A stretch of 64,000 nucleotides of DNA from Candidatus Levybacteria bacterium RIFCSPHIGHO2_02_FULL_40_18 (GTDB taxonomy: Bacteria > Patescibacteriota > Microgenomatia > Levybacterales > GWA1-39-11): assembly GCA_001782235.1 (NCBI GenBank), contig MFOC01000007.1, positions 86,799 through 150,798 on the forward strand, given 5' to 3'. Below, piece by piece: positions 10,000 to 45,840 of the stretch; position 1 is the stretch's first letter; every line of letters begins with the position of its first letter. The notes under the pieces are model-generated. The model had not been told where the DNA came from. It was given only the letters and a program-made list of their open reading frames with translations, and searched no databases. Position numbers and translations under genes: made by a program.

Positions 10000-10002
10000 A
10001 TT

Positions 10003-10123
10003 TAATAAGATATTAGTTGTTAGAAATTAGAAAATGGTTATGGAAATTAGATGTTGGAAATTGGTTTTGGTTCAACTATTTTCCATTTCCCACTTTCTAT
10101 TACTATTTTCTATTCTCTAGTGG
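10003..10123. repeat. palindromic purine-word/pyrimidine-word intergenic element (family copy 1) between ruvA and ruvB
   Basis: Left arm TAGAAATTAGAAAATGGTTATGGAAATTAG..., right arm ...CTATTTTCCATTTCCCACTTTCTATTACTATTTTCTATTCTC. Confidence 0.6.
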
Positions 10124-25049: not shown

Positions 25050-25170
25050 AATTTATTTAATTCAAAACTCAAAAGTCAAAAGTTAAAAATTAAAGTTAAA
25101 ATTTAAAAGTGTTTTTAATACTTTTTACTTTTGAATTGCAATTTTGAATTTTGCATTTTGACTTTTAACT

Positions 25171-25845
25171 TTACAATATTACATTCTTAATATCATTCGA
25201 ATCAAAATCCAAAGTAATAAACTCCTGATTGAATAGTTCATAGTAAAGCTTTATAAGCTCATTAGTTGAAAGTGGTCGAGCAGAGAGTCCCATTCTCTCA
25301 ACTTGCGTAGTAACATTGTTTCTTTTTGAAATAAGCGCTGATTTTACCCTCTCATTTAATGCCAGGTTTTTTTTGTCCGTTGTTTTCGCTTGTGCAGCAG
25401 AGGCTACCCCAAGCTCCAGTTGAGAAAACGGGATTACAATATAAATCTTTTTGTCTAAAAGTCCCTCACCCTTTATCAGATCTTTTATAAAATCTCTATA
25501 TAATGTTAATTGTTCCTTGACCTTAGGGTTTTGGATTCCTGCTATTTTATCCTCGATTAGTTTTATGTAACTGACAAGATCTACGCGCCGTGAGACAATC
25601 AATATTTGAATAGATGAAGAGAGAGAATTAAGAAGAGACATGTAGCCATAGATTCTTGCGTTTTGTTCATCTTGTGAGAGAAGGAAAAAATTAACGGACG
25701 AAACTTCCATAATCATACAAGCATTGCCGCCTTTTAAGAAGACAATATCGTCCTGGATGTCAACAATCTCAGTAAAATCTTGCGTGCTTGAGTGAATCTT
25801 TGACTTAGCCATAATCGATATAGAAATTGGTTGTAGGATTTCCAT
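25171..25845 (-). CDS. VirB4 N-terminal-domain protein (separate ORF)
   Basis: LKGGNACMIMEVSSVNFFLLSQDEQNARIYGYMSLLNSL..IQILIVSRRVD aligns with the VirB4 N-terminal region (LEDGSIMSIARIDGVAFELEE..NARCRAFNTLLRNIAD.HVSIYAHLVRH). It is out of frame with the downstream ATPase ORF. Confidence 0.5.
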   Translation of the reverse strand: MEILQPISISIMAKSKIHSSTQDFTEIVDIQDDIVFLKGGNACMIMEVSSVNFFLLSQDEQNARIYGYMSLLNSLSSSIQILIVSRRVDLVSYIKLIEDKIAGIQNPKVKEQLTLYRDFIKDLIKGEGLLDKKIYIVIPFSQLELGVASAAQAKTTDKKNLALNERVKSALISKRNNVTTQVERMGLSARPLSTNELIKLYYELFNQEFITLDFDSNDIKNVIL

Positions 25846-25880
25846 TACTAATTTCCATTTTCCAATAACTATTTTCTAGT

Positions 25881-28539: not shown

Positions 28540-31500
28540 TTCAATTCACATGAATTGGCAGTAGCAGGTCCTGCCACAAGACAACCGCGACAAGGGCGGA
28601 AAGAAGAGCAAGCACCCCCAGGATCGGAAACTGTTTTAAAAGTTCGGAAAAGCGCATTCTTAAGAGAAGAAACATCAGGTACTCGTGTAAGAAGCATTAG
28701 AGGACGAGAACGCGGAATCCAGTCAGAGTGGGTTTCTTTAGATGAACATATAAAAGAAGAGTATCGAATTTTTCTAAAAGACCATGCTGAAGGTTTATTA
28801 AGGCTTTACAACAACCACCAAGAAATCCTCCAAAGCGAACCTCACAGACACGATGAGGAATTATTCAACATGTTTACATCTGAGAGAAGAAACGCAGACG
28901 GTACCATTAAGAAAATAATAGATGAACAAAAAATTGAGGGCTTCTTAAAAAAACCGGAAGGATGGATGGTAACAACGCAATTACTTGAGCATCAAACCGC
29001 AATGCAATTGTTTGCGTTAGGGTTGCACGCAGCTGCTAATCCTCAGGGAGAAAGAAATGCTTTGGGTGGTAAGGTAACTATTCCACTTGGAATAGATCAG
29101 GGTATTTTAAACAGGCTTGGGAGGGAAGTGGTAGAAGGTTTAAGACTTAATGAGTTTGCTGCTACCTTTGGAGGAAGAAGAGGGGAGGCAAGAATTTTGG
29201 GCTTAATTAGGGCTCCCTGGGCAGATAATTTAAGGCGATGGCATGTAGCAGGAATAACGGGCGGTGCATCCGCTTTGGGAATAGCAGGCACCGCAATGCT
29301 TGGACCGGAGGCAATGATTGGAGCAGGTATTGCCCCATGGGCATTTCAATGGCTCCAAGCCTCAATTGGCACTGGTGTTCAGGTTGACATGAGGCAGTGT
29401 AGCGCAGCTTTTCAGGCAATAAGAACGAATCCCACAGAGGTTGAATATGTAAAAGAAGTTTTTGGAGTAGATATGCGAGATTTTGTCGATCTTGGCTATA
29501 ATCAAATCGGCCTAGCACCACATAGAGCGGTGGGAGGCAATCTTGAAACCTATACAGACGTAAACAATCTGAGAAATAATGCCGTAGGAAATATAATTAC
29601 GCGCATGGAATTCTACACCAAAATTGGTGTTCCGCTTGAGAAGCTTGATGCCTTACCCGAGCAATTTCTATATTTATATACTAACCAACAGGAGCAAACC
29701 GGAACCGAATGGCAGAGAAGAATTCAAGAAGTCTTCCTTCCGAATGCCGGAGGCATCAGAGACATAAATGGTAATAACATTGAAACTGCTCCCGGAGTTC
29801 CCAATCCGGCTTTTGACGCCAACAATTTGGATTTTGCCGGAAACATCTCAAGATACATGGATGCAAGAAGACAGATAATGGTAGGAATGGTACGGGATAT
29901 GATTCAAGAAGAAAGAAGTGCGGCGGCTTCTTTAGATCAATCAAAGCAAGCAATTACCCAAATGATAACAGAGAGAAGATCTGAAGGTTATAGACAAAGA
30001 AGAACAGAAAGACTGGGTCAAGAAAGAACAAGACTCGAAGCCTATAGAAATATTTTAGATGGGCAGACAGGTGCATTCACTATATATAACCAAACAATAA
30101 CGGAGCTTAATGAAGAGAGAACAAATCTTGCGACCGAACTTTCAAGGACTTTTGCAGGAGCATTTGGAGGAGATGTTGATGCTGCTTTAACCTCGGCCAG
30201 AAGTATTTTATCGACGCCTGGAACTACCATAACTATTAATGGAAATGTAATTGCTTCTACTCGTCAGAGATTTACAGATCTTGATGCCTGGAGGTCAACA
30301 GAGATAGCCGATATAAAAAATCACAGACCAGCACATTTAGACCCGACAGACGATGAGTATCCAGTATGGGTTCAATCAGAGAGAGAAAGAATACTTAGCG
30401 ATTATCAGAACCAGAAAGCTGATATTCAAGCAGATGTAAATATAATCAACCAGCAGATTGAAAATCTTGAGGGGTTTAGAACTAGAGTTACAGTAGCTGA
30501 AAGGCGGCTTGAGAACAACGAAGAGGGACAGCCATCAAGGATTCTCATTCAACAACTCGAGGGTTGGGAGAGGGATCGCGCTCAAATTACTGGTTGGGGC
30601 ACGCCTGCTAATGTTTTGGATAATGCGTTTTTAGCTAGCGGCGATATAGATGCGATTATGGCAAGAATTAACACTGCTAATGCTGCTACTCCCGCAAACG
30701 GTTGGCCGGAGGCAAGAAATAATGATCCGGCTTATAGAACTCGAGTTTTTCAAGCAGTTCTTGAGTCAAGAGCTCAAGTAGCAGAAGCAGCTGACACAAC
30801 AAGAGCAGCAAGACTTCCTGATTATGTCATTATAACTAACCCTGCAGTATGGAATATTAGTCAGAATGAGTTAAGACACATGACTCCTGCCGATTTAACA
30901 GCCGCACTAACAGCAAGGGCCCCGGCATTAGGGGGAATACCAATTCCAAATCCAGCTCAAATTGAAAACGCTATTCGTGAAGCACAAAATAGAATTCAAG
31001 TTAGATTAGGAGCTATCACAGAGCAAACAAGAATTACTGACGAAGCGATAGAAAACAGAAGGTTCCAAATAGAAGGCGTTAACTTTGATGATGAGATCAG
31101 ACAACTTGAAACAGCATTAACTTTGCTTAATCGACAGCCGGATATTATTGCAGGACGCCCGACTCGTGAGAATCGTGCTACATTTACCGACAGGACTGTT
31201 ATGGCAGGAGATACAACATATTCACAATCTGAAAGAGACGTAGGTTCTGTCAGGGGCTATTATGAATTTATGAATCTCCTCTTTAATTATAGAGAAAGAG
31301 GCGTAGTTGAGGGAGTGGACCGCGACGAATATTTTAGAAGAATTTCTCAAGTTTTACCACCAGCAAGATTAGGGCAATTACTAAATGAAGCTTTGGGATT
31401 GGGAGGTTCCGGAATAAATCTCAATACTGTCTTAGCAAGACTTGATGCAAGACTTGCCTCAGGACAAATAAACGACAGAGATATGGTAAGGGTTTTATTC

Positions 31501-31545
31501 AATGTAATAGAAAGAAATAGACTTGAGGCTCTTGCCCTAAGTTAA
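28531..31545 (+). CDS. giant hypothetical protein (1004 aa), island-specific
   Basis: One central hydrophobic Gly/Ala-rich stretch (AGITGGASALGIAGTAMLGPEAMIGAGIAPWAF) and extensive coiled-coil-like Gln/Asn/Arg-rich regions. No recognisable catalytic motif. Confidence 0.6.
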   Translation: MVQFNSHELAVAGPATRQPRQGRKEEQAPPGSETVLKVRKSAFLREETSGTRVRSIRGRERGIQSEWVSLDEHIKEEYRIFLKDHAEGLLRLYNNHQEILQSEPHRHDEELFNMFTSERRNADGTIKKIIDEQKIEGFLKKPEGWMVTTQLLEHQTAMQLFALGLHAAANPQGERNALGGKVTIPLGIDQGILNRLGREVVEGLRLNEFAATFGGRRGEARILGLIRAPWADNLRRWHVAGITGGASALGIAGTAMLGPEAMIGAGIAPWAFQWLQASIGTGVQVDMRQCSAAFQAIRTNPTEVEYVKEVFGVDMRDFVDLGYNQIGLAPHRAVGGNLETYTDVNNLRNNAVGNIITRMEFYTKIGVPLEKLDALPEQFLYLYTNQQEQTGTEWQRRIQEVFLPNAGGIRDINGNNIETAPGVPNPAFDANNLDFAGNISRYMDARRQIMVGMVRDMIQEERSAAASLDQSKQAITQMITERRSEGYRQRRTERLGQERTRLEAYRNILDGQTGAFTIYNQTITELNEERTNLATELSRTFAGAFGGDVDAALTSARSILSTPGTTITINGNVIASTRQRFTDLDAWRSTEIADIKNHRPAHLDPTDDEYPVWVQSERERILSDYQNQKADIQADVNIINQQIENLEGFRTRVTVAERRLENNEEGQPSRILIQQLEGWERDRAQITGWGTPANVLDNAFLASGDIDAIMARINTANAATPANGWPEARNNDPAYRTRVFQAVLESRAQVAEAADTTRAARLPDYVIITNPAVWNISQNELRHMTPADLTAALTARAPALGGIPIPNPAQIENAIREAQNRIQVRLGAITEQTRITDEAIENRRFQIEGVNFDDEIRQLETALTLLNRQPDIIAGRPTRENRATFTDRTVMAGDTTYSQSERDVGSVRGYYEFMNLLFNYRERGVVEGVDRDEYFRRISQVLPPARLGQLLNEALGLGGSGINLNTVLARLDARLASGQINDRDMVRVLFNVIERNRLEALALS

Positions 31546-31553
31546 AGTATTAT

Positions 31554-31901
31554 ATGAGTCTACAGACTAAAGATTTAATAAAAATATTACCCTTTGACGA
31601 GGCTTTTAAGAAAGAGCTTGGTGATTCCTTCGATAGCTTAGACACTGACAAAAGAAATAGTATTGAAAAGCTGCTTTGGGGAACATATTTTGCTCTTTAT
31701 GACTTTAAATTAAATGAGAACCTTTCAATTGCTCTTGCGGAAGCAAAAAAAAACAGAGAAAAGCTAGATGAGAATTTTTATTGGAGAGTGAAAGAATTGA
31801 CGGATCGGGAGATAGAACATGTAAGCGCTGAAGATATAAAAACAGCCGATTTAGAAGAAGCAAGAGATAAACTCGCAGAAATTGTAAGCCCTGATAAATG
31901 A
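31554..31901 (+). CDS. hypothetical acidic protein
   Basis: Tightly follows the giant ORF. No motif. Confidence 0.45.
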   Translation: MSLQTKDLIKILPFDEAFKKELGDSFDSLDTDKRNSIEKLLWGTYFALYDFKLNENLSIALAEAKKNREKLDENFYWRVKELTDREIEHVSAEDIKTADLEEARDKLAEIVSPDK

Positions 31902-32210
31902 CTATCTTGGGGCGAGCTGCCCTACGCCCGTGATTTGGGATATGGCGTTAAGGAAGAAAAATGAGAGAAAGATAAATATCAGACCAGCAAGCGCATAGAC
32001 TAAAGTTTTCCTAGCGCTTGATATCTTTTCAGGATCCCCTTCTGACATAACATATTTATATCCTGCATAAATTATCATAAAAACCGATACAATACCCGCA
32101 ATTACAATAAGGGCATTGATGATATTTTGAAGAACCACAGGGATACACGAAAGAGTTGCGACGCCCTCAGGGCTAACACAACTTCCCCAATCAGAAATAA
32201 TATCAAACAT
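31902..32210 (-). CDS. T4SS pilin-like protein (VirB2/TrbC-like, paralog 1)
   Basis: Two hydrophobic helices flanking the conserved YAGYKYVMSEGDPEKISSARKTLVYALAGL motif shared by four paralogs. Confidence 0.55.
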   Translation of the reverse strand: MFDIISDWGSCVSPEGVATLSCIPVVLQNIINALIVIAGIVSVFMIIYAGYKYVMSEGDPEKISSARKTLVYALAGLIFIFLSFFFLNAISQITGVGQLAPR

Positions 32211-32260
32211 ATATATATTTTATAGATAACCTAATCTTAAAATCAATAAAGAAGGTTTTG

Positions 32261-32659
32261 TTATTTGAATTCAGGGAGGGTGAGGATCTTGAGATTTCTT
32301 AGGTCTCCAAGTCCAAGAGCCTGAAGCACAACATTTATAATGACAAAAGAAAGAGCTATTATAATAAGACCTATTACTGCGGCAATTATATGATTTCTTG
32401 CATCTGCAACTTTTTGTTTGTCTCCGCCTGATGTGATCCACTGAAATGCCCCAATGACTATAAAAAGAAGTGCCGCCAAAAAGGCTATAACTATTATAAA
32501 GGCAACCAAAAACCCTACCACTTGGCCAATGGTTGTTTCAGGAGGAATAACAGTTGCGCCCGCGGGAGTTTTGACTCCGGCATCTATCGCGGCAAAAGCA
32601 GGTGCGGCAAGTGAGGAATAAGAAATTAGAGCGAAGGCACCTGATAATATCTTTCTCAT
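32261..32659 (-). CDS. T4SS pilin-like protein (paralog 2, with signal peptide)
   Basis: Signal peptide ...AAPAFAA, then ...GAFQWITSGGDKQKVADARNHIIAAVIGLIII. Confidence 0.55.
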   Translation of the reverse strand: MRKILSGAFALISYSSLAAPAFAAIDAGVKTPAGATVIPPETTIGQVVGFLVAFIIVIAFLAALLFIVIGAFQWITSGGDKQKVADARNHIIAAVIGLIIIALSFVIINVVLQALGLGDLRNLKILTLPEFK

Positions 32660-32698
32660 AAATTAATTAGAGCATGTTTCAAACCCTTTGTCAATAGT

Positions 32699-33034
32699 CT
32701 ATGGATTAACAACTGTTTTAACACCAAACGCGCCTGCTACGAGATTTACAAAGACAAGCGCCAATGACATAACTATTAATCCAAATATCGCATAGATAAC
32801 TATTCTTCTTGCTTTATCCCATTTTTGCTTGTCCCCGGACGCTTGTAGCCAATAAAAACCCCCATAAACAATATAGAATAGAGAAAGAAAAATTCCAATA
32901 ATTAGCGCTAGTTGAATGAAAAAAGATGCAATATTGCCTATTGTAAATTGAGGTCCGGTAGGAATACCGGGAGGCGCCTCAATATCAACTTGGCCTCCGC
33001 CTGAACCCGGTACTTTTAATGATAAATATCTCAT
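32699..33034 (-). CDS. T4SS pilin-like protein (paralog 3)
   Basis: ...YGGFYWLQASGDKQKWDKARRIVIYAIFGLIVM. Confidence 0.55.
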   Translation of the reverse strand: MRYLSLKVPGSGGGQVDIEAPPGIPTGPQFTIGNIASFFIQLALIIGIFLSLFYIVYGGFYWLQASGDKQKWDKARRIVIYAIFGLIVMSLALVFVNLVAGAFGVKTVVNP

Positions 33035-33171
33035 ATTAGAAATTGGTTATTAATAATTAGAAAATAGTTCAGAAATTAGAAATTAGAAATTGGTTCTTGA
33101 TTTTTAACTATTTTCTATTCTCTATTTTCCATTACCATTTTCCATTCTCCTATAACTATTTTCTAATATAT
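33035..33171. repeat. palindromic intergenic element (family copy 2)
   Basis: TAGAAATTGGTTCTTGATTTTTAACTATTTTCTATTCTCTATTTTCCATTACCATTTTCC is nearly the exact reverse complement of copy 3. Confidence 0.65.
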
Positions 33172-34569
33172 TTAGCGGGTGATTCCTGGTATTTTCAAAA
33201 TATCAACTCCTATTATCTCAAGTATAACAATTGAGAAAATGATGAACAACAATCCTACGACTGCAGAAGTTATCGTTTCCCTTGCTCCTGCGATTTTCTC
33301 TTTATCCCCTCCTGACGTTATTAATATATAGCCTGAGTAGATTATTATTATGATTGCCCCAAATCCCGCAATTGTTAATATAAATCTAAAAATTGTCTCA
33401 ATGAATCCTTTTGGAGTGACATTAATTGGTCCGATTGCCGAATTTATGGTTTTACAGTCACCAGGGCGAAGATTAATATCACCTTCCCCACTTCCACAAG
33501 GCAGTATTGCACCGGGAGCAACCTTATTTAACGCCGCAAGGTCTTTAAGAAAGGTACGATACTCCTCGCCTTTGGGATCTTGTCTATAATGCAGGGGATC
33601 ATCACATGTTCCACCTTCCTTATTATTAGCTGATGTGATTATGCATGTTGCTTCATAATATGTAAATCCACCTTTACAACCAGGTGGGTTTGGAACTGAA
33701 GGAAATACGCTGACGCTTACCCAAGCCCATGCGGTTGGGTTATCATCATCAACCTGTTCTCTTACAGTTATTGTGTATTTTCCAGCGGAAAGTTTTTGAA
33801 ACTCAATTCTTTTTCCACTCTCATTCTCGCTCGTAAAGGCAAGACATCCTCCCTGTCGGTAACCATTGTTTCCAATCATCAAAATTTGGTAGTTATTCCT
33901 TCTCCACCCTCCAGGCCTGAACGAATTATTAATGGCATTGCCTAGATTTACGGTGATTGTTGCGCCAGGTCTCAAGTCTGTACCAGGATAGATTGATAGA
34001 GAAGGATAAGTTCTATGAACATAAAAACCTCCTATTTTAATTGGTTTGTAATAGGCATCTTTTATTAGGGTTCCGATACTCAGCGCATAGACATTCCCAC
34101 CATGAAAATAGACAGTGCCACCACAGTCAGTTTTGACCTTGCTACTTCCTGCTCCGCATACCCCCTTAACAGTTACATTGCCTTTGCTATCTGATTTTAG
34201 CCCTAAGATAAAATTGTCCAATATATCTGGGCCGTTTATCCCAGGTACAAATCCTTCTTCTCTAAGACATGCGCTGTCTCCCGTACAAATTATATAACCA
34301 GACTTATCACTCTCAAGTCCATAAAAAGTAATATCAATTATTTTATCTGCTTCATCAAGACATTCAGGTCGCTCGCTTGTTGAAAATTCAACGTCTGTTC
34401 CCTCAAGAATTGTCTCAGTGGGAGAAGGACTTGTCTGACATGGATCAAGCTGGGCAAAAGCAGGAGTTTTGAAAAGTAAAAATATCGCGGCGAAGAGGAA
34501 GGACGCGGTTAATATAAGAAGCTTCTTCATATATTTATGATAGGCAGAAGGAGTAGGGGAAGTCAACAT
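33172..34569 (-). CDS. extended pilin: secreted Cys-rich ectodomain (about 380 aa) fused to C-terminal pilin-like domain (paralog 4)
   Basis: Signal peptide, more than 20 Cys in the ectodomain, C-terminal ...YSGYILITSGGDKEKIAGARETITSAVVGLLFII. Flanked by near-identical inverted repeats. Confidence 0.6.
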   Translation of the reverse strand: MLTSPTPSAYHKYMKKLLILTASFLFAAIFLLFKTPAFAQLDPCQTSPSPTETILEGTDVEFSTSERPECLDEADKIIDITFYGLESDKSGYIICTGDSACLREEGFVPGINGPDILDNFILGLKSDSKGNVTVKGVCGAGSSKVKTDCGGTVYFHGGNVYALSIGTLIKDAYYKPIKIGGFYVHRTYPSLSIYPGTDLRPGATITVNLGNAINNSFRPGGWRRNNYQILMIGNNGYRQGGCLAFTSENESGKRIEFQKLSAGKYTITVREQVDDDNPTAWAWVSVSVFPSVPNPPGCKGGFTYYEATCIITSANNKEGGTCDDPLHYRQDPKGEEYRTFLKDLAALNKVAPGAILPCGSGEGDINLRPGDCKTINSAIGPINVTPKGFIETIFRFILTIAGFGAIIIIIYSGYILITSGGDKEKIAGARETITSAVVGLLFIIFSIVILEIIGVDILKIPGITR

Positions 34570-34572
34570 CCG

Positions 34573-34723
34573 CTAGAAATTAGTTATTAATAATTAGAAA
34601 ATAGTTGTTGGAAAATGGAAATTAGTAATGGAAAATAGAGAATAGAAAATAGTTAAAAATCAAGAACCAATTTCTAGTTTCTAATTTCCGAACCATTCTC
34701 TAATTTCCCATAACTACTTTCTG
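34573..34723. repeat. palindromic intergenic element (family copy 3)
   Basis: GGAAAATGGAAATTAGTAATGGAAAATAGAGAATAGAAAATAGTTAAAAATCAAGAACCAATTTCTA, inverted relative to copy 2. Confidence 0.65.
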
Positions 34724-36040
34724 CTACTCTGTGAGTTTGTAGCCGCGGCCTTTTATGGTTTGGATAGAATTAGGATTATTGGGATCATCTTCTATTTTCT
34801 TTCGTAAGCGATAAATTATTTGATCAAGGGCTTGGTCTGTTACACCTTCTTGAGTTTTAGTGTCTTTCCAGACATTTGAGATTATTTCGTCTTTTTCACA
34901 TACCCGCCCTTGGTTTTGAAGCAAAAATCTAAGTAGTCTAAACTCCTGCGGAGAAAGAATTTCGGTTAAGTTTTGATCTCCCTTGAGGATCTCATTGCGC
35001 TCCTGATCATAAGACAATCTTGGGGAGGTGGGGGTTAAAGTTTTTAGGTATGTGTCGAACAATGGAATAACGAGTTTGCCATCACGGGTTAGTCCTGCCT
35101 TTTCTAAAAATTCATTTTTATTATTTGCTTTTATATCCTTCTTTTCTTCCGGTGTCAGGAAATTCCATATCTCTGAAAGCGCGCTCCTAACCTGTGGTTT
35201 TAACAGTAAGACTTCGGATAATCGGCTGTTGGCTGTTGGCTGTTGGCTATTGGCCAGGGTAGCTTCATAACAAATTCGTGCGAGTTTTCCGTGGCCGCCG
35301 GTCAGTTTTATAATTTCACTTTTAATTCTTTCATCAGCCGACTTTCCCGAAATTTCTTCAAGATGCTTGAATCGAAATTCTAGTCCCACCTTATCATAAA
35401 GCGAAAGATATACTATGTTACCGATTAAAAACTCAGAGAATTCGGCATAAATAGAAGATTCTAAAACCTCCTCGATTGGACGCGTTATGCCAAAAACAGC
35501 AGTAAATCTATACTTTGCGCGGTTTCGAAGAATCTTTAAGTTAAGAAAAAAGGAAGAGTCAATATTTTGTACATATTCCTCAAAACGGTCCAGCAGAAAA
35601 ACAATATTTAATTCGCATTCATTTGCAAGATAGTCTATAGCTTTTTTTAAGTTTTGAGAAAAGACCATCTCATCGGAGAATTTAAGAGCGTCTGAGAGAA
35701 ATTTATTAACAACCGACTCTTCTTCTTTTAATCTTCTTTCGCCAAAAGAGGAAGCAATAGAGATTAAGATAAATTTTAATATGTCGGAAAGGGACCTTTT
35801 GGCTACTTCTGAGAAGTCCATATAAACAAAATGATAAGAAGATTCCCTTTTACCTAAGTGGAGCTCCCGGACCGTTCTATTATAAGGAAGTAAACGAAGC
35901 GCGTTGCTTTTCCCTGTGCCCGGTAGCCCAATTACCTGACAGGATTTGCCCGATGATACGAATTCGATAATTTTGGCGATCTCAGCCTTTCTTGTTTCTT
36001 TTGGGTATAGGCTCTCAAAATGAGAAGGCTCGATAATCAT
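34724..36040 (-). CDS. AAA-type ATPase fused to C-terminal OmpR/PhoB-type winged-helix DNA-binding domain (candidate island regulator)
   Basis: Walker A GLPGTGKSNAL near the N-terminus. The C-terminal LSPQEFRLLRFLLQNQGRVCEKDEIISNVW...ALDQIIYRLRKKIEDDPNNPNSIQTIKGRGYKL matches trans_reg_C. Confidence 0.6.
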   Translation of the reverse strand: MIIEPSHFESLYPKETRKAEIAKIIEFVSSGKSCQVIGLPGTGKSNALRLLPYNRTVRELHLGKRESSYHFVYMDFSEVAKRSLSDILKFILISIASSFGERRLKEEESVVNKFLSDALKFSDEMVFSQNLKKAIDYLANECELNIVFLLDRFEEYVQNIDSSFFLNLKILRNRAKYRFTAVFGITRPIEEVLESSIYAEFSEFLIGNIVYLSLYDKVGLEFRFKHLEEISGKSADERIKSEIIKLTGGHGKLARICYEATLANSQQPTANSRLSEVLLLKPQVRSALSEIWNFLTPEEKKDIKANNKNEFLEKAGLTRDGKLVIPLFDTYLKTLTPTSPRLSYDQERNEILKGDQNLTEILSPQEFRLLRFLLQNQGRVCEKDEIISNVWKDTKTQEGVTDQALDQIIYRLRKKIEDDPNNPNSIQTIKGRGYKLTE

Positions 36041-36103
36041 AGAAAATAGAAAATAGTTATTAGAAAATAGACAATGGTTCGGAAATTAGAAAATAGAAAT
36101 TGG
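36041..36103. repeat. purine-word half-element (family copy 4, left arm)
   Basis: AGAAAATAGAAAATAGTTATTAGAAAATAGACAATGGTTCGGAAATTAGAAAATAGAAATTGG. Confidence 0.55.
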
Positions 36104-36532
36104 TTAACGATCATGGTAATTCTTCCAAGATTTCTTAAGATTCGTTAGTTGCTTACAGGAGATTATATATAAATTTATGACTTCGTTGCAAAGTTTAGGA
36201 TCGACGTATTTACTATAAACATCTATGCATACTGATAAATGATTTATCATTTCGTAACATTCACCTATCGTATCATCTATATATTTACTCCATGCTTTTT
36301 TCTGATATCTTTTGGCAAACCCCTCAGCAAGTATGGCTGGTCCTGCTTTGCAACTACGTCTCATTTGATCAACAAGATCAAACTTCTCTTCCTTCGGTAG
36401 ATTAGTAATTATTTCCTTCAATACTGTGACCATTGCCTTATATAAATTTTGGTACACCTCAAGATCTTGAAAAGTTCTGATTGGCTTTTTCTTTCTATTT
36501 TCCATTTTCAAATATCTATTACCATTTTCCAC
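36104..36532 (-). CDS. four-helix-bundle protein (23S rRNA intervening-sequence protein family)
   Basis: FQDLEVYQNLYKAMVTVLKEIITNLPKEEKFDLVDQMRRSCKAGPAILAEGFAKR matches the TIGR02436-type pattern. The first about 12 codons are read from repeat-element sequence, so the true start is probably internal. Confidence 0.55.
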   Translation of the reverse strand: MENGNRYLKMENRKKKPIRTFQDLEVYQNLYKAMVTVLKEIITNLPKEEKFDLVDQMRRSCKAGPAILAEGFAKRYQKKAWSKYIDDTIGECYEMINHLSVCIDVYSKYVDPKLCNEVINLYIISCKQLTNLKKSWKNYHDR

Positions 36533-36560
36533 TTTCCTACAACCATTTACAATTATCAGA
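36485..36560. repeat. pyrimidine-word half-element (family copy 5, right arm)
   Basis: TTTCTTTCTATTTTCCATTTTCAAATATCTATTACCATTTTCCACTTTCC, the inverted partner of copy 4 across the four-helix-bundle gene. Confidence 0.55.
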
Positions 36561-36627
36561 CTTCTGTTACGCTGCTGTTAGGTTAATATCAAGTATCCTA
36601 AGCTATATTCTTGTAAACTTGCGCCAT

Positions 36628-39600
36628 ATGACACACGAAAATTTGACACCAAGAGACGCTATCAACTATTCTATAAATAGAATGCCAGAACCCATAATAG
36701 ATGGCCTACGAGGCGGCTCTGCCTCAAGTCGTTCAGTTCCGGGATATGATTCTTCCAGAACCGTAGATGAAATACAGGCTCAAAGAATTGTTGATGAGGT
36801 CAAATCCAAATCTTATTCTGCTAAAAGCAAATGGAGCAAAGAACAGGTTGATAAAAATGCCGGGCTTTCTGATGAGGAACGTCTTAGTCAAGCAGCTAAA
36901 ATTTTAAATCGGGAGCTTTCTCAAGAACAAAAAGACGCAGTCATTGGAACACATAAAATTAGCGAAGGCGAGATGGGAAAAGATGATAAACCTGTCAAAA
37001 TAGGAGAATACACACAGGCTCAAATTAAAAGAAAAGCCAATTCATTGAAAAAAGCAGGGTTTAATCTTGAAGAAAGGCGTGCTTTGCTTGAAAGCGGCAT
37101 TGCCGGCCTTCCTCTGGAAAGATTCGCCGCTATTAATCCTGACACATATACAGATCCTGAGATTAAAAATAAAACGGGGTTTGTAAAAACTATGGGGACA
37201 GAAGGAAACGCTGATTCGGAATTCTTACAGAATCAACTCTTTGAACTCAACTCTAGAATCGATAGGGGAACTGGGGACCTCAGAGAAGCAAGAACATTTC
37301 GGGATCAAATACAAGATCTTTTGACAGAGGCTCGTAGGCAAGAAACTGCAGAATTAGAAGAGAGAAGGCGTGCCGCGGAGGCAAGGTCTCCTACAGAGAG
37401 AAGGGGAGGCTATGAGCATCTTGAACGAACAGAGGAACAATTAAGAGCTATGACTCCTGAGGAACGTCAGAATTGGAGGGATCAAATTAAGCAGGCAATC
37501 AGAGAAGCGCCAGCCATCGATGCCTCTCGCTTCCCTGAACAACTTTTAGTAATAGCATTGAGCGATAAGGAACTTCGTGAGATGCTTCTCAATAGAATTC
37601 TTTTTAAACCCTATGAAGATACAACTGAGGCAAATATGTATAGGCTTAACTTTTACGCTGAGGGGAATCGCGACGATATTCTTGGGAAATTAGCCGAAAT
37701 AACTGATGGGAAATATGATTATTTTAAAAAACTTCAGACCGCGGTAGAGTTATTTCATGCAATGAATGTATCAACTGTCTCAGGAGACATAGAGCATTTA
37801 CTTGACTATGCTCGGCGAATAAATTTTGAACATTTTTCCTTAATGCAAGAGCTTCCAGGTCTCCCAGATGTCATGAGGCTTTATGAAGAGAAATACCAGG
37901 AGATTTTAGCAAGAGAAGGTAGAATAGCAACAGAGGGTTACAAAACATTAAAAAAAGAAGTAGAGAGAGCCTTCAATGAGATGAATGAAAAAGGGATTGT
38001 CAGAAGCGAATATGAAACGGAAAGGACTGGTGACAGGCCATGGATAATGGAAGACTGGGAAAGAACTAGGGCTATTAATGCGGGAAGAGCATTTTTTAAT
38101 ATTACCATTCGCGCAGCAGAACATATAGCAAATGGACAACTTGAGTCTGGAGGTAGAAAATGGACAGGATTTCCTCAGGAAGACGCTGTAAGACTTATGA
38201 ACTGGCCAAAATGGCTCGTTGAGAGATTTGAGGTTGCTATCCCTCGTGGAGGGCGTGCGTTTCTTGACAGAACAAGTAGAAACTACTTTGAATTTCTTGT
38301 TGAGCGCAAGCGAAAACTGGGGATAAATAGAATAGCCCAGCTTGGAGGAATGAGGGTTGATGAGCTTGAACTTGGGGCAATGTTTGGCGTAAGCGGAGTT
38401 TATAGCTCCTGGAGACTTGAGGCAATGCTATTTCCAAAGATCAAACTTGCCAATGGCCAGACACTTAGAGACTGGCTTGATGAGGAAGTCGGATATATAT
38501 CGCCGGACGGCAAGACAATTATGGCAAGAGGGAAAGACAGGCAGAGTCACTGGGTTGATAAAGGTATCTCCTTGCAGAAGCGGGCTGACTGGTTAGACCA
38601 GATTCAAGGAGATATTAAAAGCCAAGACCAGTTGCTCAAGTTTTTATCTCCTGTCATAGAAAATACAGACATTGCACTTGGTGTATTACTTAAGCAAGGT
38701 CTTACCTCAGGAGAGGTAGGATATAAGGTGAGAGAGAGAATTTGGCAAAGAGTTGCTGAAACAAATCTGCCTCTGATGATAAATTATCTTTCAAGCATTA
38801 GTGAAATGGATGATCCAATAGAGGTTGGTATAGGAGAACCTTTAAAAGGCGCACCAAAAGCTCAAAATCGCATAAGGCCAGATGACTGGACGTGCGGCGA
38901 AGAAGGGAGCGAGGAACGAAAGGAGGGAGATAGGAAGTGGAATGAGTTTAAAGAAAATGTTTTACTGCATCATGCCTGGGAAGTTAAACGCGCGGCGGGA
39001 GCAAATGTGTCAGAGGAGTCGCCTGTCCGTGATTATATTCGTGATCACCAAGATTTGATAGATAAAATTAAGCAAGAGGGGAGAGCACTTGCACCGCAAC
39101 TTGCAGATATTGTTTTTCCTTACGTTCCTTTTATGAATGACGTGCCATTTGAACTTATCGATTATGCAGGCCCGGGAGAAACATTCTACAAGAGGAGATT
39201 AGGCTCTGACCTTCCGAGCTTTAGCGCTGCAGAGCGCGCGTTTACAACCATTGTTAATAATCCGGGTGGGATAGGAGCAGAGAATGCACTTAAGGCATTT
39301 GATGAGATTGTAAAAGGAATTGAGAGTCCACAAGGGACACCGGATGCGCAGGAAAGGGTCTATCCAATGCTTTCTGCCTGGGGAGAATTTGTCCTGGCGC
39401 GTCCCGGGCATAGACAGATGATAATAAAGGCAGTTACAGAGATACTAAGAAAACCCACTTCCATTGCTCAGGAGTTTGCAGGAATGGATGCGGAATCTCT
39501 CGATGAAAATCAAATGCTGGCTGTTTTAGGAAATGCTACGAAAGCTGGAATTATAAGCCATGACCTTTACAATGAGATGAAGAAAAAAAAGCATCTGGGC

Positions 39601-39702
39601 ATTCTTTTTATCTTGTGGGCGCTTTTCCGTGATATTATTATAATGGCTCCGGCAATCGCAGCTTGGGAGATGGGTAAAGATACGATGAAGAAAGCGGCAT
39701 GA
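36628..39702 (+). CDS. giant hypothetical protein (about 1024 aa) with C-terminal TM anchor, island-specific
   Basis: The ORF track begins at 36481 inside the repeat element. The first ATG is 36628 (MTHENLTPRD). C-terminal hydrophobic HLGILFILWALFRDIIIMAPAIAAW. No known catalytic motif. Confidence 0.55.
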   Translation: MTHENLTPRDAINYSINRMPEPIIDGLRGGSASSRSVPGYDSSRTVDEIQAQRIVDEVKSKSYSAKSKWSKEQVDKNAGLSDEERLSQAAKILNRELSQEQKDAVIGTHKISEGEMGKDDKPVKIGEYTQAQIKRKANSLKKAGFNLEERRALLESGIAGLPLERFAAINPDTYTDPEIKNKTGFVKTMGTEGNADSEFLQNQLFELNSRIDRGTGDLREARTFRDQIQDLLTEARRQETAELEERRRAAEARSPTERRGGYEHLERTEEQLRAMTPEERQNWRDQIKQAIREAPAIDASRFPEQLLVIALSDKELREMLLNRILFKPYEDTTEANMYRLNFYAEGNRDDILGKLAEITDGKYDYFKKLQTAVELFHAMNVSTVSGDIEHLLDYARRINFEHFSLMQELPGLPDVMRLYEEKYQEILAREGRIATEGYKTLKKEVERAFNEMNEKGIVRSEYETERTGDRPWIMEDWERTRAINAGRAFFNITIRAAEHIANGQLESGGRKWTGFPQEDAVRLMNWPKWLVERFEVAIPRGGRAFLDRTSRNYFEFLVERKRKLGINRIAQLGGMRVDELELGAMFGVSGVYSSWRLEAMLFPKIKLANGQTLRDWLDEEVGYISPDGKTIMARGKDRQSHWVDKGISLQKRADWLDQIQGDIKSQDQLLKFLSPVIENTDIALGVLLKQGLTSGEVGYKVRERIWQRVAETNLPLMINYLSSISEMDDPIEVGIGEPLKGAPKAQNRIRPDDWTCGEEGSEERKEGDRKWNEFKENVLLHHAWEVKRAAGANVSEESPVRDYIRDHQDLIDKIKQEGRALAPQLADIVFPYVPFMNDVPFELIDYAGPGETFYKRRLGSDLPSFSAAERAFTTIVNNPGGIGAENALKAFDEIVKGIESPQGTPDAQERVYPMLSAWGEFVLARPGHRQMIIKAVTEILRKPTSIAQEFAGMDAESLDENQMLAVLGNATKAGIISHDLYNEMKKKKHLGILFILWALFRDIIIMAPAIAAWEMGKDTMKKAA

Positions 39703-39721
39703 AGCTTTTCTTGCTGTTCTT

Positions 39722-41335
39722 TTATCTAAAGACCCGTCTGAGAACAGCAGTAAGCCCTTTCTCACCCGCCAGTGGCATAGCGCCTTTTAGAGCTGCAAAA
39801 CCACCTCCAGCAGTTCCCCTAACAGTTCCTGTTATGACACCCAGTCCTCCTGCAACCGATCTTCCTATTGCTGCGGTGTACTTAAATTCGGGCGCTTTTA
39901 GAGCGTCCCTGACAATATTGACAACTTCAGGGGTCAAGAGAATTATTCCAAGACCAATTATTGACGCAAAGTTTGCTGGATCCAAAAAGTCTCCGGTAAG
40001 TGGTGGAACAAAAGGCGTTGTGCTTGGATCTTGTTTAGTAAAGCCACTCATAAAAGCCTTTCCAAAAAGAAACATGGCAATTGTTACCGGAAATACCGAG
40101 AGGTTTGATAATATTGATCTTATCCACGTTCCAAAACCAGATCTTCCCGGGATTAGCCCCGAGGCAATATAAAAGGGGGCAAGGACTACATTTATGAGGA
40201 CGTAGATATAGGATTTAATAAGTTGAAACCAAAGACGCAGGAGCGCTGCAAAAATTGCGATTATTATAATAAGGTACGTAACTGCACCTGCAAAAAATCC
40301 CAGAATTCTATTTCCAGACAGTTCATTCACCCCAAAACCTATTGCAAAACCTGCTACCGCCCCAGGGATCCCTCCGAAACTGCCAGCAGCCTTAGCTACT
40401 TTACCTAGCACTGAAGGTAGTCCACCTCCTGCGCCGCCCAACACGGTTCCAAAGATTCCGCCGACAATTCCTGCTAAAACATTCCCAAGAGTACCATCAA
40501 ATATAGATCGCACAATCCCTGAGATACTTTTAGCAACGCCTTCTGCAATTCCAGATATCCCCATGTCCTTTCCGGTGAGCGGGGCGCTGCCAAATCCTCC
40601 GGCTGCCGCAAAGGGGTTACTTGCCAACATACTTGTTGGGTCAATTCCTTGCTCGGCGAATATTGTCATAATTAAGTAGATTGAGACATACATAAGGTCC
40701 ACTAAAAACCCTGCGATTGCATAAGAGAAGGTAATCAAAACTAGAGCAATCACAATTTTTGGAATTTGATTTTGCATTGTCATAACGGTTCTGGGGTCAA
40801 TTTTTATTCTAAACATTATTCCAAGACCCACAATTATAAAAACAATTACAAAGAGAAGATAAGTCAAATTTCTAAAAGCCTGCCAGAGCTTAAGAGTGGG
40901 CGTAAGGGAATTAAAACCTAGGCTTCCCTCAGGTCCTTGCGCATATGTTTTTTTAACTATGCCAAAATTTGAAGCAACATAGCTTCCGTAATCATGAGTT
41001 GAGACAGGAATGTAAAAAGTTGCCGACATAAGATTTCCCAACATTCCAAGCGCTCCGCCTCCTCCCTCAACAAATCCTATTTTTCCAGTATTTGGATCTA
41101 TTCCAAGACACTTATTACCAGGATTGGCGGGATCAATTCCTGAGAGTTGACAAGAAGTTGCGGCGATAATTTCAATAAAGACGCTTTGGGTGTATGTATG
41201 GAAATTCTGCGGGACGTCCGGATTTGTGTTGAGGTAATTTGCATTAGGGTTTGGGAATTGAGCATTCGCGTTTGGTACAAAAATAAGGAACAATGAATAA
41301 AGAATAACGAATAAAGAGAGCAGTTTAAATATCAT
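39722..41335 (-). CDS. polytopic Gly-rich membrane protein, VirB6/TrbL-like candidate
   Basis: Signal/TM N-terminus, more than 6 TM helices, and Gly-rich loops (GGGGLPSVLGKVAKAAGSFGGIPGAVAGFAIGFG) as in TrbL/VirB6-type pore components. Assigned by topology only. Confidence 0.4.
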   Translation of the reverse strand: MIFKLLSLFVILYSLFLIFVPNANAQFPNPNANYLNTNPDVPQNFHTYTQSVFIEIIAATSCQLSGIDPANPGNKCLGIDPNTGKIGFVEGGGGALGMLGNLMSATFYIPVSTHDYGSYVASNFGIVKKTYAQGPEGSLGFNSLTPTLKLWQAFRNLTYLLFVIVFIIVGLGIMFRIKIDPRTVMTMQNQIPKIVIALVLITFSYAIAGFLVDLMYVSIYLIMTIFAEQGIDPTSMLASNPFAAAGGFGSAPLTGKDMGISGIAEGVAKSISGIVRSIFDGTLGNVLAGIVGGIFGTVLGGAGGGLPSVLGKVAKAAGSFGGIPGAVAGFAIGFGVNELSGNRILGFFAGAVTYLIIIIAIFAALLRLWFQLIKSYIYVLINVVLAPFYIASGLIPGRSGFGTWIRSILSNLSVFPVTIAMFLFGKAFMSGFTKQDPSTTPFVPPLTGDFLDPANFASIIGLGIILLTPEVVNIVRDALKAPEFKYTAAIGRSVAGGLGVITGTVRGTAGGGFAALKGAMPLAGEKGLTAVLRRVFR

Positions 41336-41344
41336 AATTGATTT

Positions 41345-41495
41345 TAGTATTTAGAAATTGGTTTTTGGACAATAGAAATTAGTAATAGAAAATAGAGAAT
41401 AGAAAATAGAAACAAATACTATTCTCCAAGTTCAAATTTCCATAACCATTTTCCAATTTCTTACAACTATTTTCTAATAAGTCTATTTTTAGTAT
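41345..41495. repeat. palindromic intergenic element (family copy 6)
   Basis: AGAAATTAGTAATAGAAAATAGAGAATAGAAAATAG is near-identical to the copy 3 core. Right arm ...CCATAACCATTTTCCAATTTCTTACAACTATTTTCTAAT. Confidence 0.6.
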
Positions 41496-41719
41496 GGGCT
41501 AAAAATATCGTAAATGTCAAATAGTTGGCTTGACCCCGCTAATCTTACCGTTCGCCTTTTTCCCGCCGATATTTTTCGGTCGGGATCCCGCACGAATGTA
41601 ATTCGTCGGGACAGTACTATTCGTACACGGCTCACGGAGCGATTTTAGAGGTGTCTTCTGTCGCTACGCTTCTTGACAATTGGTGTGGTTGGGGTTATTA
41701 TTATCAAAATCTTCATTAA

Positions 41720-42334
41720 ATGAAAAAAGTTGTCTTGGGATTACTGCTCCTGGCCCTCTTTTATTTAAGTACTCCTTCAAAAACACTTGCCCAAACTAAG
41801 CCTATACTTTCTCCTTCGCCCACGGAAGCCCTCATGTCAGAAGATAAACAAATGGAGAAAGAAAAAGAAGCCACGCAAAGTTCGCAGCCTGAGATAGATG
41901 AGTACCCGTTGCCCTATCCTGGAATCTTACCTGACAATCCGTTGCATTTTCTAAAGGCTCTCCGAGACAGGATAATTTTAATGCTAATGTCAGATCCTGT
42001 AAAAGAAGCGGAGTTTAATCTTTTAACATCGGACAAAAGAATTTATGCGGCACAACTTTTAGCAGACAAGGGAAAAGGACAACTTTCAATTTCAACTCTT
42101 TCAAAAAGCAATAACTATTTCCATAATGCAGTATCAAGCGCCGGGGAAGCCAAAAAGATGGGGAAAGATATTGATACAGTTTTACATAATATGAAAAAGT
42201 CTATTGTTAAACACCAACTGGTGCTGCCTATGATGGAGAATGTGCTCTCAAAAGACTTTGCAAGCCAGCTTCGGGCAGAGGGTGCGAGAATGGTAGAATT
42301 TGAAAGATCCGTAGATAGCCTTATCCTGCAGTAA
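41720..42334 (+). CDS. hypothetical secreted protein
   Basis: Signal peptide MKKVVLGLLLLALFYLSTPSKTLAQ. A consensus promoter TTGACA-17-TATTAT lies about 35 nt upstream. Confidence 0.5.
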   Translation: MKKVVLGLLLLALFYLSTPSKTLAQTKPILSPSPTEALMSEDKQMEKEKEATQSSQPEIDEYPLPYPGILPDNPLHFLKALRDRIILMLMSDPVKEAEFNLLTSDKRIYAAQLLADKGKGQLSISTLSKSNNYFHNAVSSAGEAKKMGKDIDTVLHNMKKSIVKHQLVLPMMENVLSKDFASQLRAEGARMVEFERSVDSLILQ

Positions 42335-42483
42335 CAATCTAATTCCCTAGTTAGATCATTTTTTTTACACACAAAAACAAAGTGCCCAACTAATTTTTTC
42401 GTCCCATCCGCCAACCGGCGGACTATTACCGCAAAACGAGGCTAAAACATCGATTGCCATAGTTTGATATACAACTTGATAGT

Positions 42484-42535
42484 TGACACGGCTGATATAG
42501 TGTTCTACTATTTTAGTTGACACTATATCTAGTAG
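42484..42535 (+). promoter_or_regulatory. nrdR-nrdJ promoter (TTGACA-17-TACTAT) with NrdR-box-like palindromes
   Basis: ACACTATATCTAGTAG (42520-42535) matches the NrdR box consensus acaCwAtATaTwGtgt. A half-box ...GATATAGTGT lies at 42494-42503. The repeat TAGTTGACAC appears twice. Confidence 0.45.
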
Positions 42536-42565
42536 TTTGCACCTTGAACAACCAGCCCAATTAAG

Positions 42566-42700
42566 CAGAAAATAGTTAATAGATAATAGAAAATAGTAAT
42601 GGAAGTTGGAAAATAGAAAATAGATTAAATACCAATTTCTAATATCTAATTTCCATAACTAATATCTAATTTCTAACAACTAATTTCTGTAATTTAGAAT
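42566..42700. repeat. palindromic intergenic element (family copy 7) forming the nrdR 5' leader
   Basis: GAAAATAGTTAATAGATAATAGAAAATAGTAATGGAAGTTGGAAAATAGAAAATAG ... CCAATTTCTAATATCTAATTTCCATAACTAATATCTAATTTCTAACAACTAATTTC. Confidence 0.6.
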
Positions 42701-42706
42701 TTAATT

Positions 42707-43156: not shown

Positions 43157-43168
43157 CCAAATTCTATT

Positions 43169-45689: not shown

Positions 45690-45840
45690 TAGTTTCAAAT
45701 AAGAGTATATATTTGGTAATCGCCGTGAAAGTCGGCGGAACTGCCGGTACTGTAATATCCAGAAAACAATATATACTTTCATCCCCGAGCAGGGTTAAGC
45801 GAAGAAGAATTCCTCTCGGGTTATCGAGAGGTTTTTTTGT
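45690..45840 (+). promoter_or_regulatory. cobalamin-riboswitch-like leader plus intrinsic terminator upstream of the PduO adenosyltransferase gene
   Basis: GGTAATCGCCGTGAAAGTCGGCGGAACTGCCGGTACTGTAAT resembles the AdoCbl aptamer core (GGGAAGCCGGTGAAAATCCGGCGCGGTCCCGCCACTGTAA, from memory). It is followed by the hairpin CCTCTCGGGTTATCGAGAGG plus T7. Confidence 0.45.

Follow-up and report, generated by a model that had tools for sequence, protein, structure and literature searches.

A surface-protein gene lying between two long inverted repeats raises the question of whether it can be inverted, exchanged or otherwise mobilised as a cassette. This arrangement occurs in a 64,000-nt stretch of the genome of Candidatus Levybacteria bacterium RIFCSPHIGHO2_02_FULL_40_18 (GCA_001782235.1, contig MFOC01000007.1, positions 86,799 to 150,798; the whole stretch is hereafter the window), where a large pilin-like open reading frame (ORF) is enclosed by two repeats that we call E3 and E4. 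The original prediction, made from the DNA letters alone, proposed an invertible or mobilisable cassette. We consider it probable instead that E3 and E4 are copies of a dispersed intergenic element of ~130-150 nt, the gene-less form of a hairpin cassette resembling the intervening sequences (IVSs) of 23S rRNA, and that the pilin gene is a bystander, bracketed because two of many copies happen to flank it in opposite orientation. The bracketing is incidental, and the phase-variation reading of the pilin gene fails. The features of the bracketed interval are:

33035..33171, minus strand: E3, a solo (ORF-less) heptamer-periodic palindromic element
33172..34569, minus strand: large secreted pilin-like protein, a 465-aa ORF with 12 Cys and a C-terminal T4SS_pilin membrane segment
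34537..34566, minus strand: promoter-like site TTGACT-18-TATCAT of the pilin gene, within the E3-E4 interval
34570..34723, plus strand: E4, a solo element of the E3 family in opposite orientation

The near-identical inverted repeats first reported here are real and about twice as long as described, since a repeat search found 33038-33167 and 34593-34722 to be complementary at 115 of 130 ungapped positions (88%). In the part originally noticed, correcting the register by 3 nt brings 33086-33150 and the reverse complement of 34612-34677 into an overlap of 62 bases, of which 60 agree. It is also correct that they flank exactly one gene, the only enclosed ORF being 33172-34569. Two features had been overlooked. 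Each arm is itself a palindrome that takes up a whole spacer, with single copies at five or more other spacers of the window, and the bracketed interval includes the pilin promoter. E3 occupies the entire spacer between the stop codon of the large pilin gene and the ATG of the next pilin gene, with its purine-rich arm first on the minus strand and hence sense with the operon; its RNA hairpin has a folding energy of -34.5 kcal/mol (z = -5.5) and its lag-7 autocorrelation is 0.63. E4 lies between the stop codon of a regulator gene and the pilin promoter (hairpin -37.8 kcal/mol, z = -5.5). Both contain the identical non-repetitive loop GGTTCTTGATTTTTAAC, and their inverted score of 186 is the highest of all element pairs (other pairs ≤134), a closeness that suggests local duplication or gene conversion.

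If the pilin gene underwent programmed inversion, with E3 and E4 as the sites of a recombinase encoded at another place in the genome, this would account for 130-nt, 88% identical inverted repeats that bracket exactly one surface-protein gene and are mutually the closest copies of their kind, and the flanking of a surface-structure gene by inverted repeats is shared with invertible segments and shufflons of the Hin/Gin/Fim/Rci type. A second orientation was however not observed. In the assembly collection, 52 index blocks contain the exact pilin protein, and the 24 contigs that were read all show one orientation and the same neighbourhood; L001-L005 (ENA; NCBI GCA_001782635.1 and GCA_001782715.1; JGI) are 100% identical to window positions 31000-43300, with four independently deposited assemblies agreeing with the window over 12.3 kb. 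The lack of an adjacent recombinase, noted from the start, holds more widely, as the ~55 window ORFs that were either Pfam-scanned here or have precomputed Pfam hits on the source contigs include no tyrosine or serine recombinase (Phage_integrase, Resolvase), transposase, Y1_Tnp or reverse transcriptase. Because the promoter is inside the interval, inversion would carry it along with the gene and could not produce ON/OFF switching. Further arguments against inversion are that element copies also stand singly and unpaired at five or more other spacers, that relatives without the repeats keep the order and orientation of the pilin genes, and that known recombinase sites are much shorter and less degenerate than these arms. 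Unlike invertible segments and shufflons, this locus shows no recombinase, second orientation, alternative promoter or C-terminus arrangement, and its repeats belong to a dispersed family. We regard programmed inversion as scarcely credible, and the site-specific inversion, shufflon-like behaviour and phase variation of the original prediction fall with it. The original prediction had named a single orientation, together with unbracketed element copies elsewhere, as the outcome that would refute it, and both were observed. Cassette exchange, also proposed there, is rejected, as the pilin gene resides at this position in three relatives without flanking elements. Its third suggestion, insertion of an element of the miniature inverted-repeat transposable element (MITE) kind on both sides, was essentially right: the repeats form a dispersed palindromic family with presence/absence polymorphism, and their ends are shared with a longer coding element.

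Each member of this family is an imperfect palindrome: degenerate 7-nt units (TAGAAAA, TAGAAAT, TGGAAAT) make up its left half, and their complements its right half. The motif TAGAAAWTRG occurs 30 times in the 64-kb window compared to 1.6 expected from shuffles, with matches clustering at seven places, and a motif-free scan of lag-7 autocorrelation independently found the same seven. At least seven elements of 68-165 nt are present, all palindromic and, in the solos, without coding capacity. The seven align over ~135 columns with all copies in register, including the loop-proximal GAAAATAG...ACCAATTTC. In addition to E3, E4 and the complete cassette E5 described below, they comprise:

10000..10123, minus strand: E1, solo, sense, between ruvA (10124-10693) and ruvB (8962-9999), which are same-strand neighbours; fold z = -4.2
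25813..25880, minus strand: E2, short or truncated solo between PrgI-like and TraC-like genes; weak fold, z = -1.9
41336..41485, plus strand: E6, solo in a divergent spacer; fold z = -2.6
42560..42706, plus strand: E7, solo, sense, directly upstream of nrdR; fold z = -7.4

On the plus strand E1, E2, E3 and E5 have one polarity and E4, E6 and E7 the other; relative to transcription, the purine-rich arm comes first in E1, E2, E3, E5 and E7, is reversed in E4, and E6 lies in a divergent spacer. RNA folds consist of long stems broken every few base pairs, with z = -4.2 to -7.4 for E1, E3, E4 and E7 and weaker values for E2 and E6. The elements are placed between a stop codon and the next start codon or promoter and therefore disrupt nothing; in E1, E2, E3, E5 and E7, as well as in Xanthomonas (see below), 0-20 nt separate the 3' arm from the downstream ATG. 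Searches of Rfam at gathering thresholds left every element without a family, both in the window and across 48 related loci, and no intrinsic terminators were predicted at the elements, none of which is followed by a U-run.

The nature of the family is indicated by E5, 1.5 kb from E3/E4, which contains a gene for an IVS protein (IVP):

34724..36040, minus strand: regulator with an OmpR/PhoB-type winged-helix C-terminal domain, between E5 and E4
36041..36560, minus strand: E5, complete cassette of 5' arm, IVP ORF and 3' arm
36506-36560, minus strand: E5 5' purine-rich heptamer arm, running into the first IVP codons
36104-36505, minus strand: IVP ORF (133 aa, 402 bp), PF05635/TIGR02436, 23S rRNA IVS protein, S23p, Avd-like four-helix bundle
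36041-36103, minus strand: E5 3' pyrimidine-rich arm, ending at the regulator ATG (36040)

A second bracketed gene, for a four-helix-bundle protein, had been reported at this position between a less similar inverted pair. The gene is truly enclosed, by a family element split into 36041-36103 and 36486-36560, but as plain complementarity the pair is weak, with a local score of 32 for 36041-36103/36485-36560 compared to a shuffle maximum of 34. The relationship becomes apparent when the two arms are compared with E3. In direct orientation, the left half of E3 (33037-33095) matches 36047-36105 at 85% identity and the right half (33101-33169) matches 36488-36556 at 77%. Aligned, the two E5 arms make up one complete element, interrupted at its loop by the 402-bp ORF, and E3 is therefore E5 without the gene; over its full length E3 can also be aligned with the 5' and 3' arms of complete cassettes. 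The E5 arms pair in the RNA fold of 36030-36570 (z = -3.6), with an arm duplex of -43.3 kcal/mol.

The IVP is a confident member of its family, with 56.8 bits against PF05635 (cut-off 33.8, E = 3e-15) and 48.8 bits against TIGR02436 (cut-off 24). Its AlphaFold2 model (pLDDT 90.7) has four helices, and the best PDB matches are XCC0516 (2gsc) and BT_0352 (2rld, 'S23 ribosomal protein family'), with Avd chains of diversity-generating retroelements (DGRs) next in rank; against one of these, 8ube_D, Foldseek gave TM-scores of 0.63 (query-normalised) and 0.75 (target-normalised). The four-helix-bundle fold and the wider PF05635 group are thus shared with DGR Avd, from which the locus differs in having no reverse transcriptase and no template/variable repeat (TR/VR) pair, its repeats being non-coding palindromes. 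A DGR reading was rejected, as there is no RVT match in the window, the IVP scores 20 against the DGR Avd equivalog model (cut-off 80), no TR/VR pair exists and mismatches between copies are not adenine-specific. Comparison with four relatives gave IVP dN/dS ratios of 0.02-0.06, that is, strong purifying selection, with synonymous sites near saturation between orthologous cassettes (dS 0.6 to >2). The 5' arm of E5, compared by eye, is ~97% (L176) and ~93% (L055) identical to the window, relative to 89% and 80% for the ORF at the nucleotide level, and the 3' arm varies by whole units among orthologous cassettes, a pattern that hints at a sequence-specific role for the 5' arm. The IVP is the only ORF of the cassette, in which no transposase domain was found; PADLOC reported no defence-system match for the IVP or its neighbours, and viral contigs yielded no members of the subfamily to which this IVP belongs.

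Orthologous spacers in related genomes differ in their complement of elements. E3 is absent from L055 and L058, in which the spacers between the large pilin gene and the next (pilin2) are 3 and 1 nt, and E4 is absent from L055, L056 and L058, in which the regulator-pilin spacers are 34-53 nt. In the window as well as in L055 (IVP 85% identical) and L176 (94%), the regulator promoter is closely followed by the IVP cassette, which is missing from the spacer upstream of the regulator in L056 and L058. L056 carries a solo of the E family in the pilin2-pilin3 spacer, which measures only 39 nt in the window, and at the E3 position a palindrome of different heptamers (GGGTTTA/CCCAAAC). Two further relatives, L178 and L179 (IVP 83% identical), have a full cassette exactly in the spacer between large pilin and pilin2, that is, at the E3 site; it starts at the stop codon and ends with the CCAATTTCTAAT/ATG junction that is shared with the solo E3. 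In L177 an 87%-identical IVP is found in an unrelated context, followed by a complete solo hairpin. Judged from these comparisons, the elements come and go at orthologous spacers.

Palindromes of other heptamer units are present at other spacers of L055, and none was found in the 21 kb of L058. The window itself contains a second type:

25050..25170, no strand assigned: second heptamer-periodic palindrome with other units (TCAAAAG/TTAAAAA and complement), between VirB4-like and TraC-like genes

This palindrome has a lag-7 autocorrelation of 0.68 and no significant RNA fold (z = -1.4). Its orthologous spacer in L055 (16419-16515) holds another heptamer family, GCACGAA/TTCGAAA, so that the same spacers hold different heptamer palindromes in different genomes. 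With respect to assembly, several short contigs carrying an identical IVP gene (L006-L009) stop 22-77 nt past a gene end, inside the arms or E4, a pattern typical of assembly breaks at multi-copy repeats, and most IVP homologues in the protein database are on ~1-kb contigs.

The association between IVP genes and heptamer arms extends well beyond this genome. A scan using one genome per species recovered 45 loci with close IVP relatives (43-74% identity), of which 41 were analysable, from many lineages of the Candidate Phyla Radiation (CPR) as well as Margulisiibacteriota, Saganbacteria, Omnitrophota, TA06, Edwardsbacteria and Bacteroidota. In ~33 of the 41 the IVP gene is directly flanked by inverted arms of 45-80 nt that beat all 30 shuffles. 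The arms have a mean lag-7 autocorrelation of 0.43, compared to ~0.30 at other lags, and lag 7 was the strongest in 23/41 upstream flanks, 27/41 downstream flanks and 0/41 coding controls. They are purine-rich upstream and complementary downstream, with units that differ by lineage (TAGAAAA, CGAAAAT, GGAAAAC, GTGGGTT/GTGAGTT). Solo copies of the arms occur within 6 kb in 15 of the 41 loci, and matches to a locus's own arm were found in 29% of loci compared to 3.8% of cross-locus pairs. No rRNA was detected in the window or in the 48 related loci scanned.

This distribution also bears on the proximity of the elements to the regulator gene. Short-unit direct repeats adjoining a winged-helix regulator gene within a type IV secretion system (T4SS)-like cluster could be operator arrays for a DNA-binding protein such as this OmpR-type regulator, co-regulating the pilin/T4SS genes. 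The same element is however found between ruvA and ruvB and upstream of nrdR, E3 sits between a stop codon and an ATG without a promoter, the operons of L055, L056 and L058 that lack E3/E4 retain both regulator and promoter, and across phyla the architecture tracks the IVP gene and not the regulator. The 7-nt spacing moreover misfits the ~10-11-bp spacing of OmpR/PhoB boxes. On the distribution of the elements we reject the operator-array reading, to which we assign only a very small probability.

A distant branch of the family was examined in Xanthomonas, where the gene for XCC0516 (PDB 2gsc), one of the two best structural matches of the window IVP, lies between accB and accC (L180-L185, ~2924-3372). 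Its upstream arm reads GGGAATC GGGAGTG GAGAATC GGGAATC and its downstream complement ends at the accC ATG, the two being complementary at 26 of 30 positions. A longer gene (126 aa) is called in X. citri (L183), where its end runs 11 nt into the start of accC. Rehm et al. (2015) reported ~70 paired, convergent, transcribed and stem-loop-capable intergenic GGGAATC arrays per Xanthomonas genome, described them as G-quadruplex-forming simple sequence repeats (SSRs) without a link to IVP genes or IVSs, and listed ruvA among the genes associated with the heptamer repeats (PMC4692102). The Xanthomonas and cyanobacterial arrays resemble the window elements in being intergenic heptamers, one pair of which flanks XCC0516, and differ in having G-rich units where those of the window are A-rich.

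An alternative that would require neither mobility nor any relationship to the IVP is that heptamer palindromes are SSRs, made in place by polymerase slippage and hairpins in AT-rich spacers, the likeness of the copies being due to convergence. This would fit the reported excess of heptameric SSRs in bacterial intergenic regions (PMC4692102), the coexistence of several heptamer families with different units, and the apparent gains and losses of units by which the 3' arms of orthologous cassettes differ. A metagenome scan with a 22-mer of the arm gave results in the same direction, as most of the ≥117 stretches recovered (hosts 30-63% GC) were plain (CTATTTT/CTATTCT)n arrays. Slippage does not readily explain, on the other hand, the non-repetitive loop GGTTCTTGATTTTTAAC common to E3 and E4 and their 88% identity over 130 nt, the in-register alignment of all copies including GAAAATAG...ACCAATTTC, arms that flank IVP genes in ~80% of loci across phyla whatever the heptamer sequence, or the occurrence of a full cassette and a solo at the same nucleotide-level site in two relatives. 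We consider formation in place to be improbable. The 22-mer is too SSR-like for an element census, to which the metagenome scan is therefore of no help although the unit is widespread. Tandem arrays of a 14-nt unit, CTATTTTCTATTCT, are present in metagenome contigs from many environments (L059-L138, 30-63% GC); these arrays are AT-rich against high-GC hosts (L072, 63% GC; L059, 56%), and some have a complementary partner arm (L067, L080, L083, L088).

A further possibility is a DNA-level mobile system comparable to REPIN/RAYT, the repetitive extragenic palindromic (REP) hairpins and their associated transposase, in which single-stranded DNA hairpins would be mobilised in trans, the IVP cassette would be a 'REPtron-like' master, the IVP a mobility or maintenance factor and RNA processing incidental. 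The layout is suggestive, since RAYT genes are flanked by inverted REPs and accompanied by dispersed REPINs (PMC3116915, PMC3337134), and dispersed extragenic palindromes together with a single-copy gene flanked by inverted repeat copies are what is seen here. The symmetry of hairpin stability between strands (see below), the presence/absence and site differences among relatives, and the strong purifying selection on an IVP with the fold of Avd, part of the DGR reverse-transcriptase ribonucleoprotein, are also consistent with such a system. Against it stand a flanked protein that is a 133-aa helical bundle without a known catalytic motif and not an IS200/IS605-type Y1 transposase, the lack of a Y1 transposase or reverse transcriptase among the window ORFs covered, the age of cassettes at orthologous sites (dS saturated), and the fact that neither a target-site duplication nor relatives on viral contigs were found. 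The window hairpins are in addition several times longer than REPs and made of 7-nt units. We regard REPIN-like mobilisation as unlikely.

A reading as gene-bearing and gene-less forms of an IVS-like cassette is supported by comparison with known IVSs. The IVS of Coxiella burnetii is a 428-nt insertion in helix 45 of 23S rRNA whose terminal inverted repeats pair into a stem cleaved by RNase III; in its loop, an S23p (PF05635) ORF is preceded, just before its ATG, by three tandem heptamers (GACAGAT) (PMC4990558). The authors state that the origin and function of the IVS and of S23p/four-helix-bundle proteins 'remain unclear', and cite an old idea of a mobile element with an ORF aiding mobility (PMC4990558). 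IVP ORFs are also known from 16S and 23S insertions in CPR bacteria (PMC11270868). E5 shares with the Coxiella/Leptospira IVSs a PF05635 ORF in an inverted-repeat stem loop, purine-rich heptamers before the ATG and a similar size class (~520 nt compared to 428 nt), and has every structural hallmark of the Coxiella IVS except location, as its neighbours are protein-coding genes, whereas the IVSs interrupt helix 25 or 45 of 23S rRNA. Other differences are that the arms of E5 are longer (55-75 nt) and imperfect, and that the window IVP ORF is under strong purifying selection (dN/dS 0.02-0.06), in contrast to the S23p of Coxiella, which is reported to be decaying. From the sequences compared here, IVS-type cassettes and their gene-less derivatives appear to occupy mRNA spacers instead of rRNA, in a pattern that appears to reach beyond this genome.

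ORF-less IVSs have a parallel in the 23S rRNA of Salmonella and other Enterobacteriaceae, where they were reportedly described by Pronk & Sanderson in 2001 and by Pabbaraju et al. in 2000. These Salmonella-type IVSs are ~100-150-nt hairpins that coexist in nature with ORF-bearing IVSs and are tolerated via removal at the RNA level; to our knowledge, heptamer periodicity has not been described for them. The window solos resemble them but are multi-copy in mRNA spacers, whereas the IVSs occur only in rRNA. With MITEs of the CREE/ERIC type (Correia repeat enclosed elements and enterobacterial repetitive intergenic consensus sequences) the solos share the properties of ~100-150-bp multi-copy intergenic elements with inverted ends. 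CREEs have a TA target duplication and conserved 26-bp terminal inverted repeats, and we know of no cognate protein-bearing full-length form. They differ from the window family, which does have a gene-bearing full-length form, in lacking heptamer periodicity. The Correia elements of Neisseria (CREE/nemis) are co-transcribed, strain-variable intergenic hairpins bound or cut by RNase III (PMC2649163).

By analogy with these systems we posit that the window elements would be transcribed within their host operons, that the transcripts would fold into long imperfect double-stranded RNA stems, and that RNase III would cut these stems as it does in the 23S IVSs of Coxiella and Leptospira and in the Correia elements of Neisseria, uncoupling or re-ending the flanking cistrons. 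Processing of this kind would make the elements tolerable inside operons such as ruvAB and accBC, and they would spread or turn over as selfish or near-neutral DNA.

Several observations weigh against parts of this account. E4 is antisense to its operon. Arm stability is equal on both strands, the sense strand being the more stable in 25 of 45 cassettes (compared to 20; Wilcoxon p = 0.37), so that there is no G-U signature favouring a hairpin at the RNA level over one at the DNA level, and RNA function is neither supported nor excluded. The IVP is co-oriented with its neighbours in 28/38 and 31/39 cases, proportions that without a control are not informative and that come near to the fraction of adjacent genes usually co-directional in bacteria. 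Machinery for spread was not found either, with no transposase, recombinase or reverse transcriptase among the ~55 window ORFs covered, and no unambiguous target-site duplication can be read at the AT-rich junctions (TAA ATAT/.../ATG). Near-saturation of dS implies an old cassette at the regulator site, one that has been inherited vertically and has not moved recently. Most of the 22-mer matches in metagenomes are plain heptamer arrays with neither a partner arm nor an IVP nearby. As to the direction of change, the ORF may have been lost from cassettes or inserted into pre-existing palindromes.

The IVS architecture exists here outside rRNA in ordinary operons (ruvAB and pilin in the window, accBC in Xanthomonas) together with a strongly selected protein. 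As Xanthomonas is culturable and the structure of its protein has been solved (2gsc), the IVS/IVP question becomes experimentally approachable. A concrete source is also offered for heptamer-repeat palindromes, which until now have been treated as anonymous SSRs. Extending this further, it is conceivable, as a tentative proposal, that IVP cassettes and gene-less heptamer palindromes form one widespread selfish class in which the 23S IVSs are the rRNA-resident special case, that the unexplained intergenic excess of heptameric repeats in bacteria, as in the Xanthomonas GGGAATC pairs, the cyanobacterial heptamer repeats and the CPR elements described here, is its footprint, and that the strongly conserved Avd-like IVP, as a factor belonging to the element, recognises the heptamer hairpin as RNA or single-stranded DNA and promotes its maintenance, processing or copying. 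A practical consequence concerns genome reconstruction and annotation, since the repeats break CPR genome assemblies and can mimic invertible cassettes, and perhaps CRISPR-like arrays, in automated scans. A large CRISPR-discovery survey listed '23S rRNA IVP' among the proteins associated with CRISPR arrays (PMC10910872), and we speculate that repeat finders might take IVP-flanking heptamer arrays for CRISPR-like arrays. In the full-text literature searched, no paper was found that connects IVP or four-helix-bundle genes with inverted heptamer arrays outside rRNA, which is no proof of novelty.

The pilin ORF and its surroundings have properties of their own. Its N-terminus is signal-peptide-like and it matches PF18895 just below the cut-off (24.7 bits compared to 26.6, E = 2.5e-5). 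The real start is probably the second ATG at 34530 (MKKLLIL..., signal peptide), and the first 13 codons of the ORF as called overlap the conserved TTGACT-18-TATCAT site, which ends 6 nt before this ATG; the pilin mRNA may, to judge by this spacing, be leaderless or nearly so. The TTGACT...TATCAT block is kept in both L056 and L058 and there overlaps the stop codon of the regulator gene; pilin homologues with 39-46% identity are found at the same operon position in L055, L056 and L058. The regulator is probably transcribed from the promoter upstream of E5. Downstream of E3 the operon continues with further pilin genes:

31902..33034, minus strand: three small T4SS_pilin genes (111, 132 and 102 aa); PF18895 E = 5e-8 to 2e-10

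The window as a whole represents core chromosome, with dnaG, rpoD, ruvABC, dnaA, dnaN, smpB/tmRNA and nrd. Within the regulator coding sequence (35192-35265, minus strand) there are four tandem heptamers (GGCTGTT x3 and GGCTATT), and a change in the copy number of this array could shift the regulator reading frame. An AdoCbl-II riboswitch (39.8 bits, 45704-45777) lies between a ribonucleotide reductase gene (43169-45673) and a cobalamin adenosyltransferase gene (45857-46408). The ribonucleotide reductase of L055 (positions 1-1775, 1176 aa) contains a LAGLIDADG intein, while the window orthologue (834 aa) has no recorded intein match. A tRNA-Ile with anticodon TAT, an uncommon bacterial route for reading AUA, is encoded at 54198-54269. 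It is adjoined by a lag-7 periodic run at 54311-54397 (ATACTTT ATACTTG ATACTGA ATACTTA), the end of which is overlapped by the ORF of a TraG/TrwB-like coupling protein (54372-56789).

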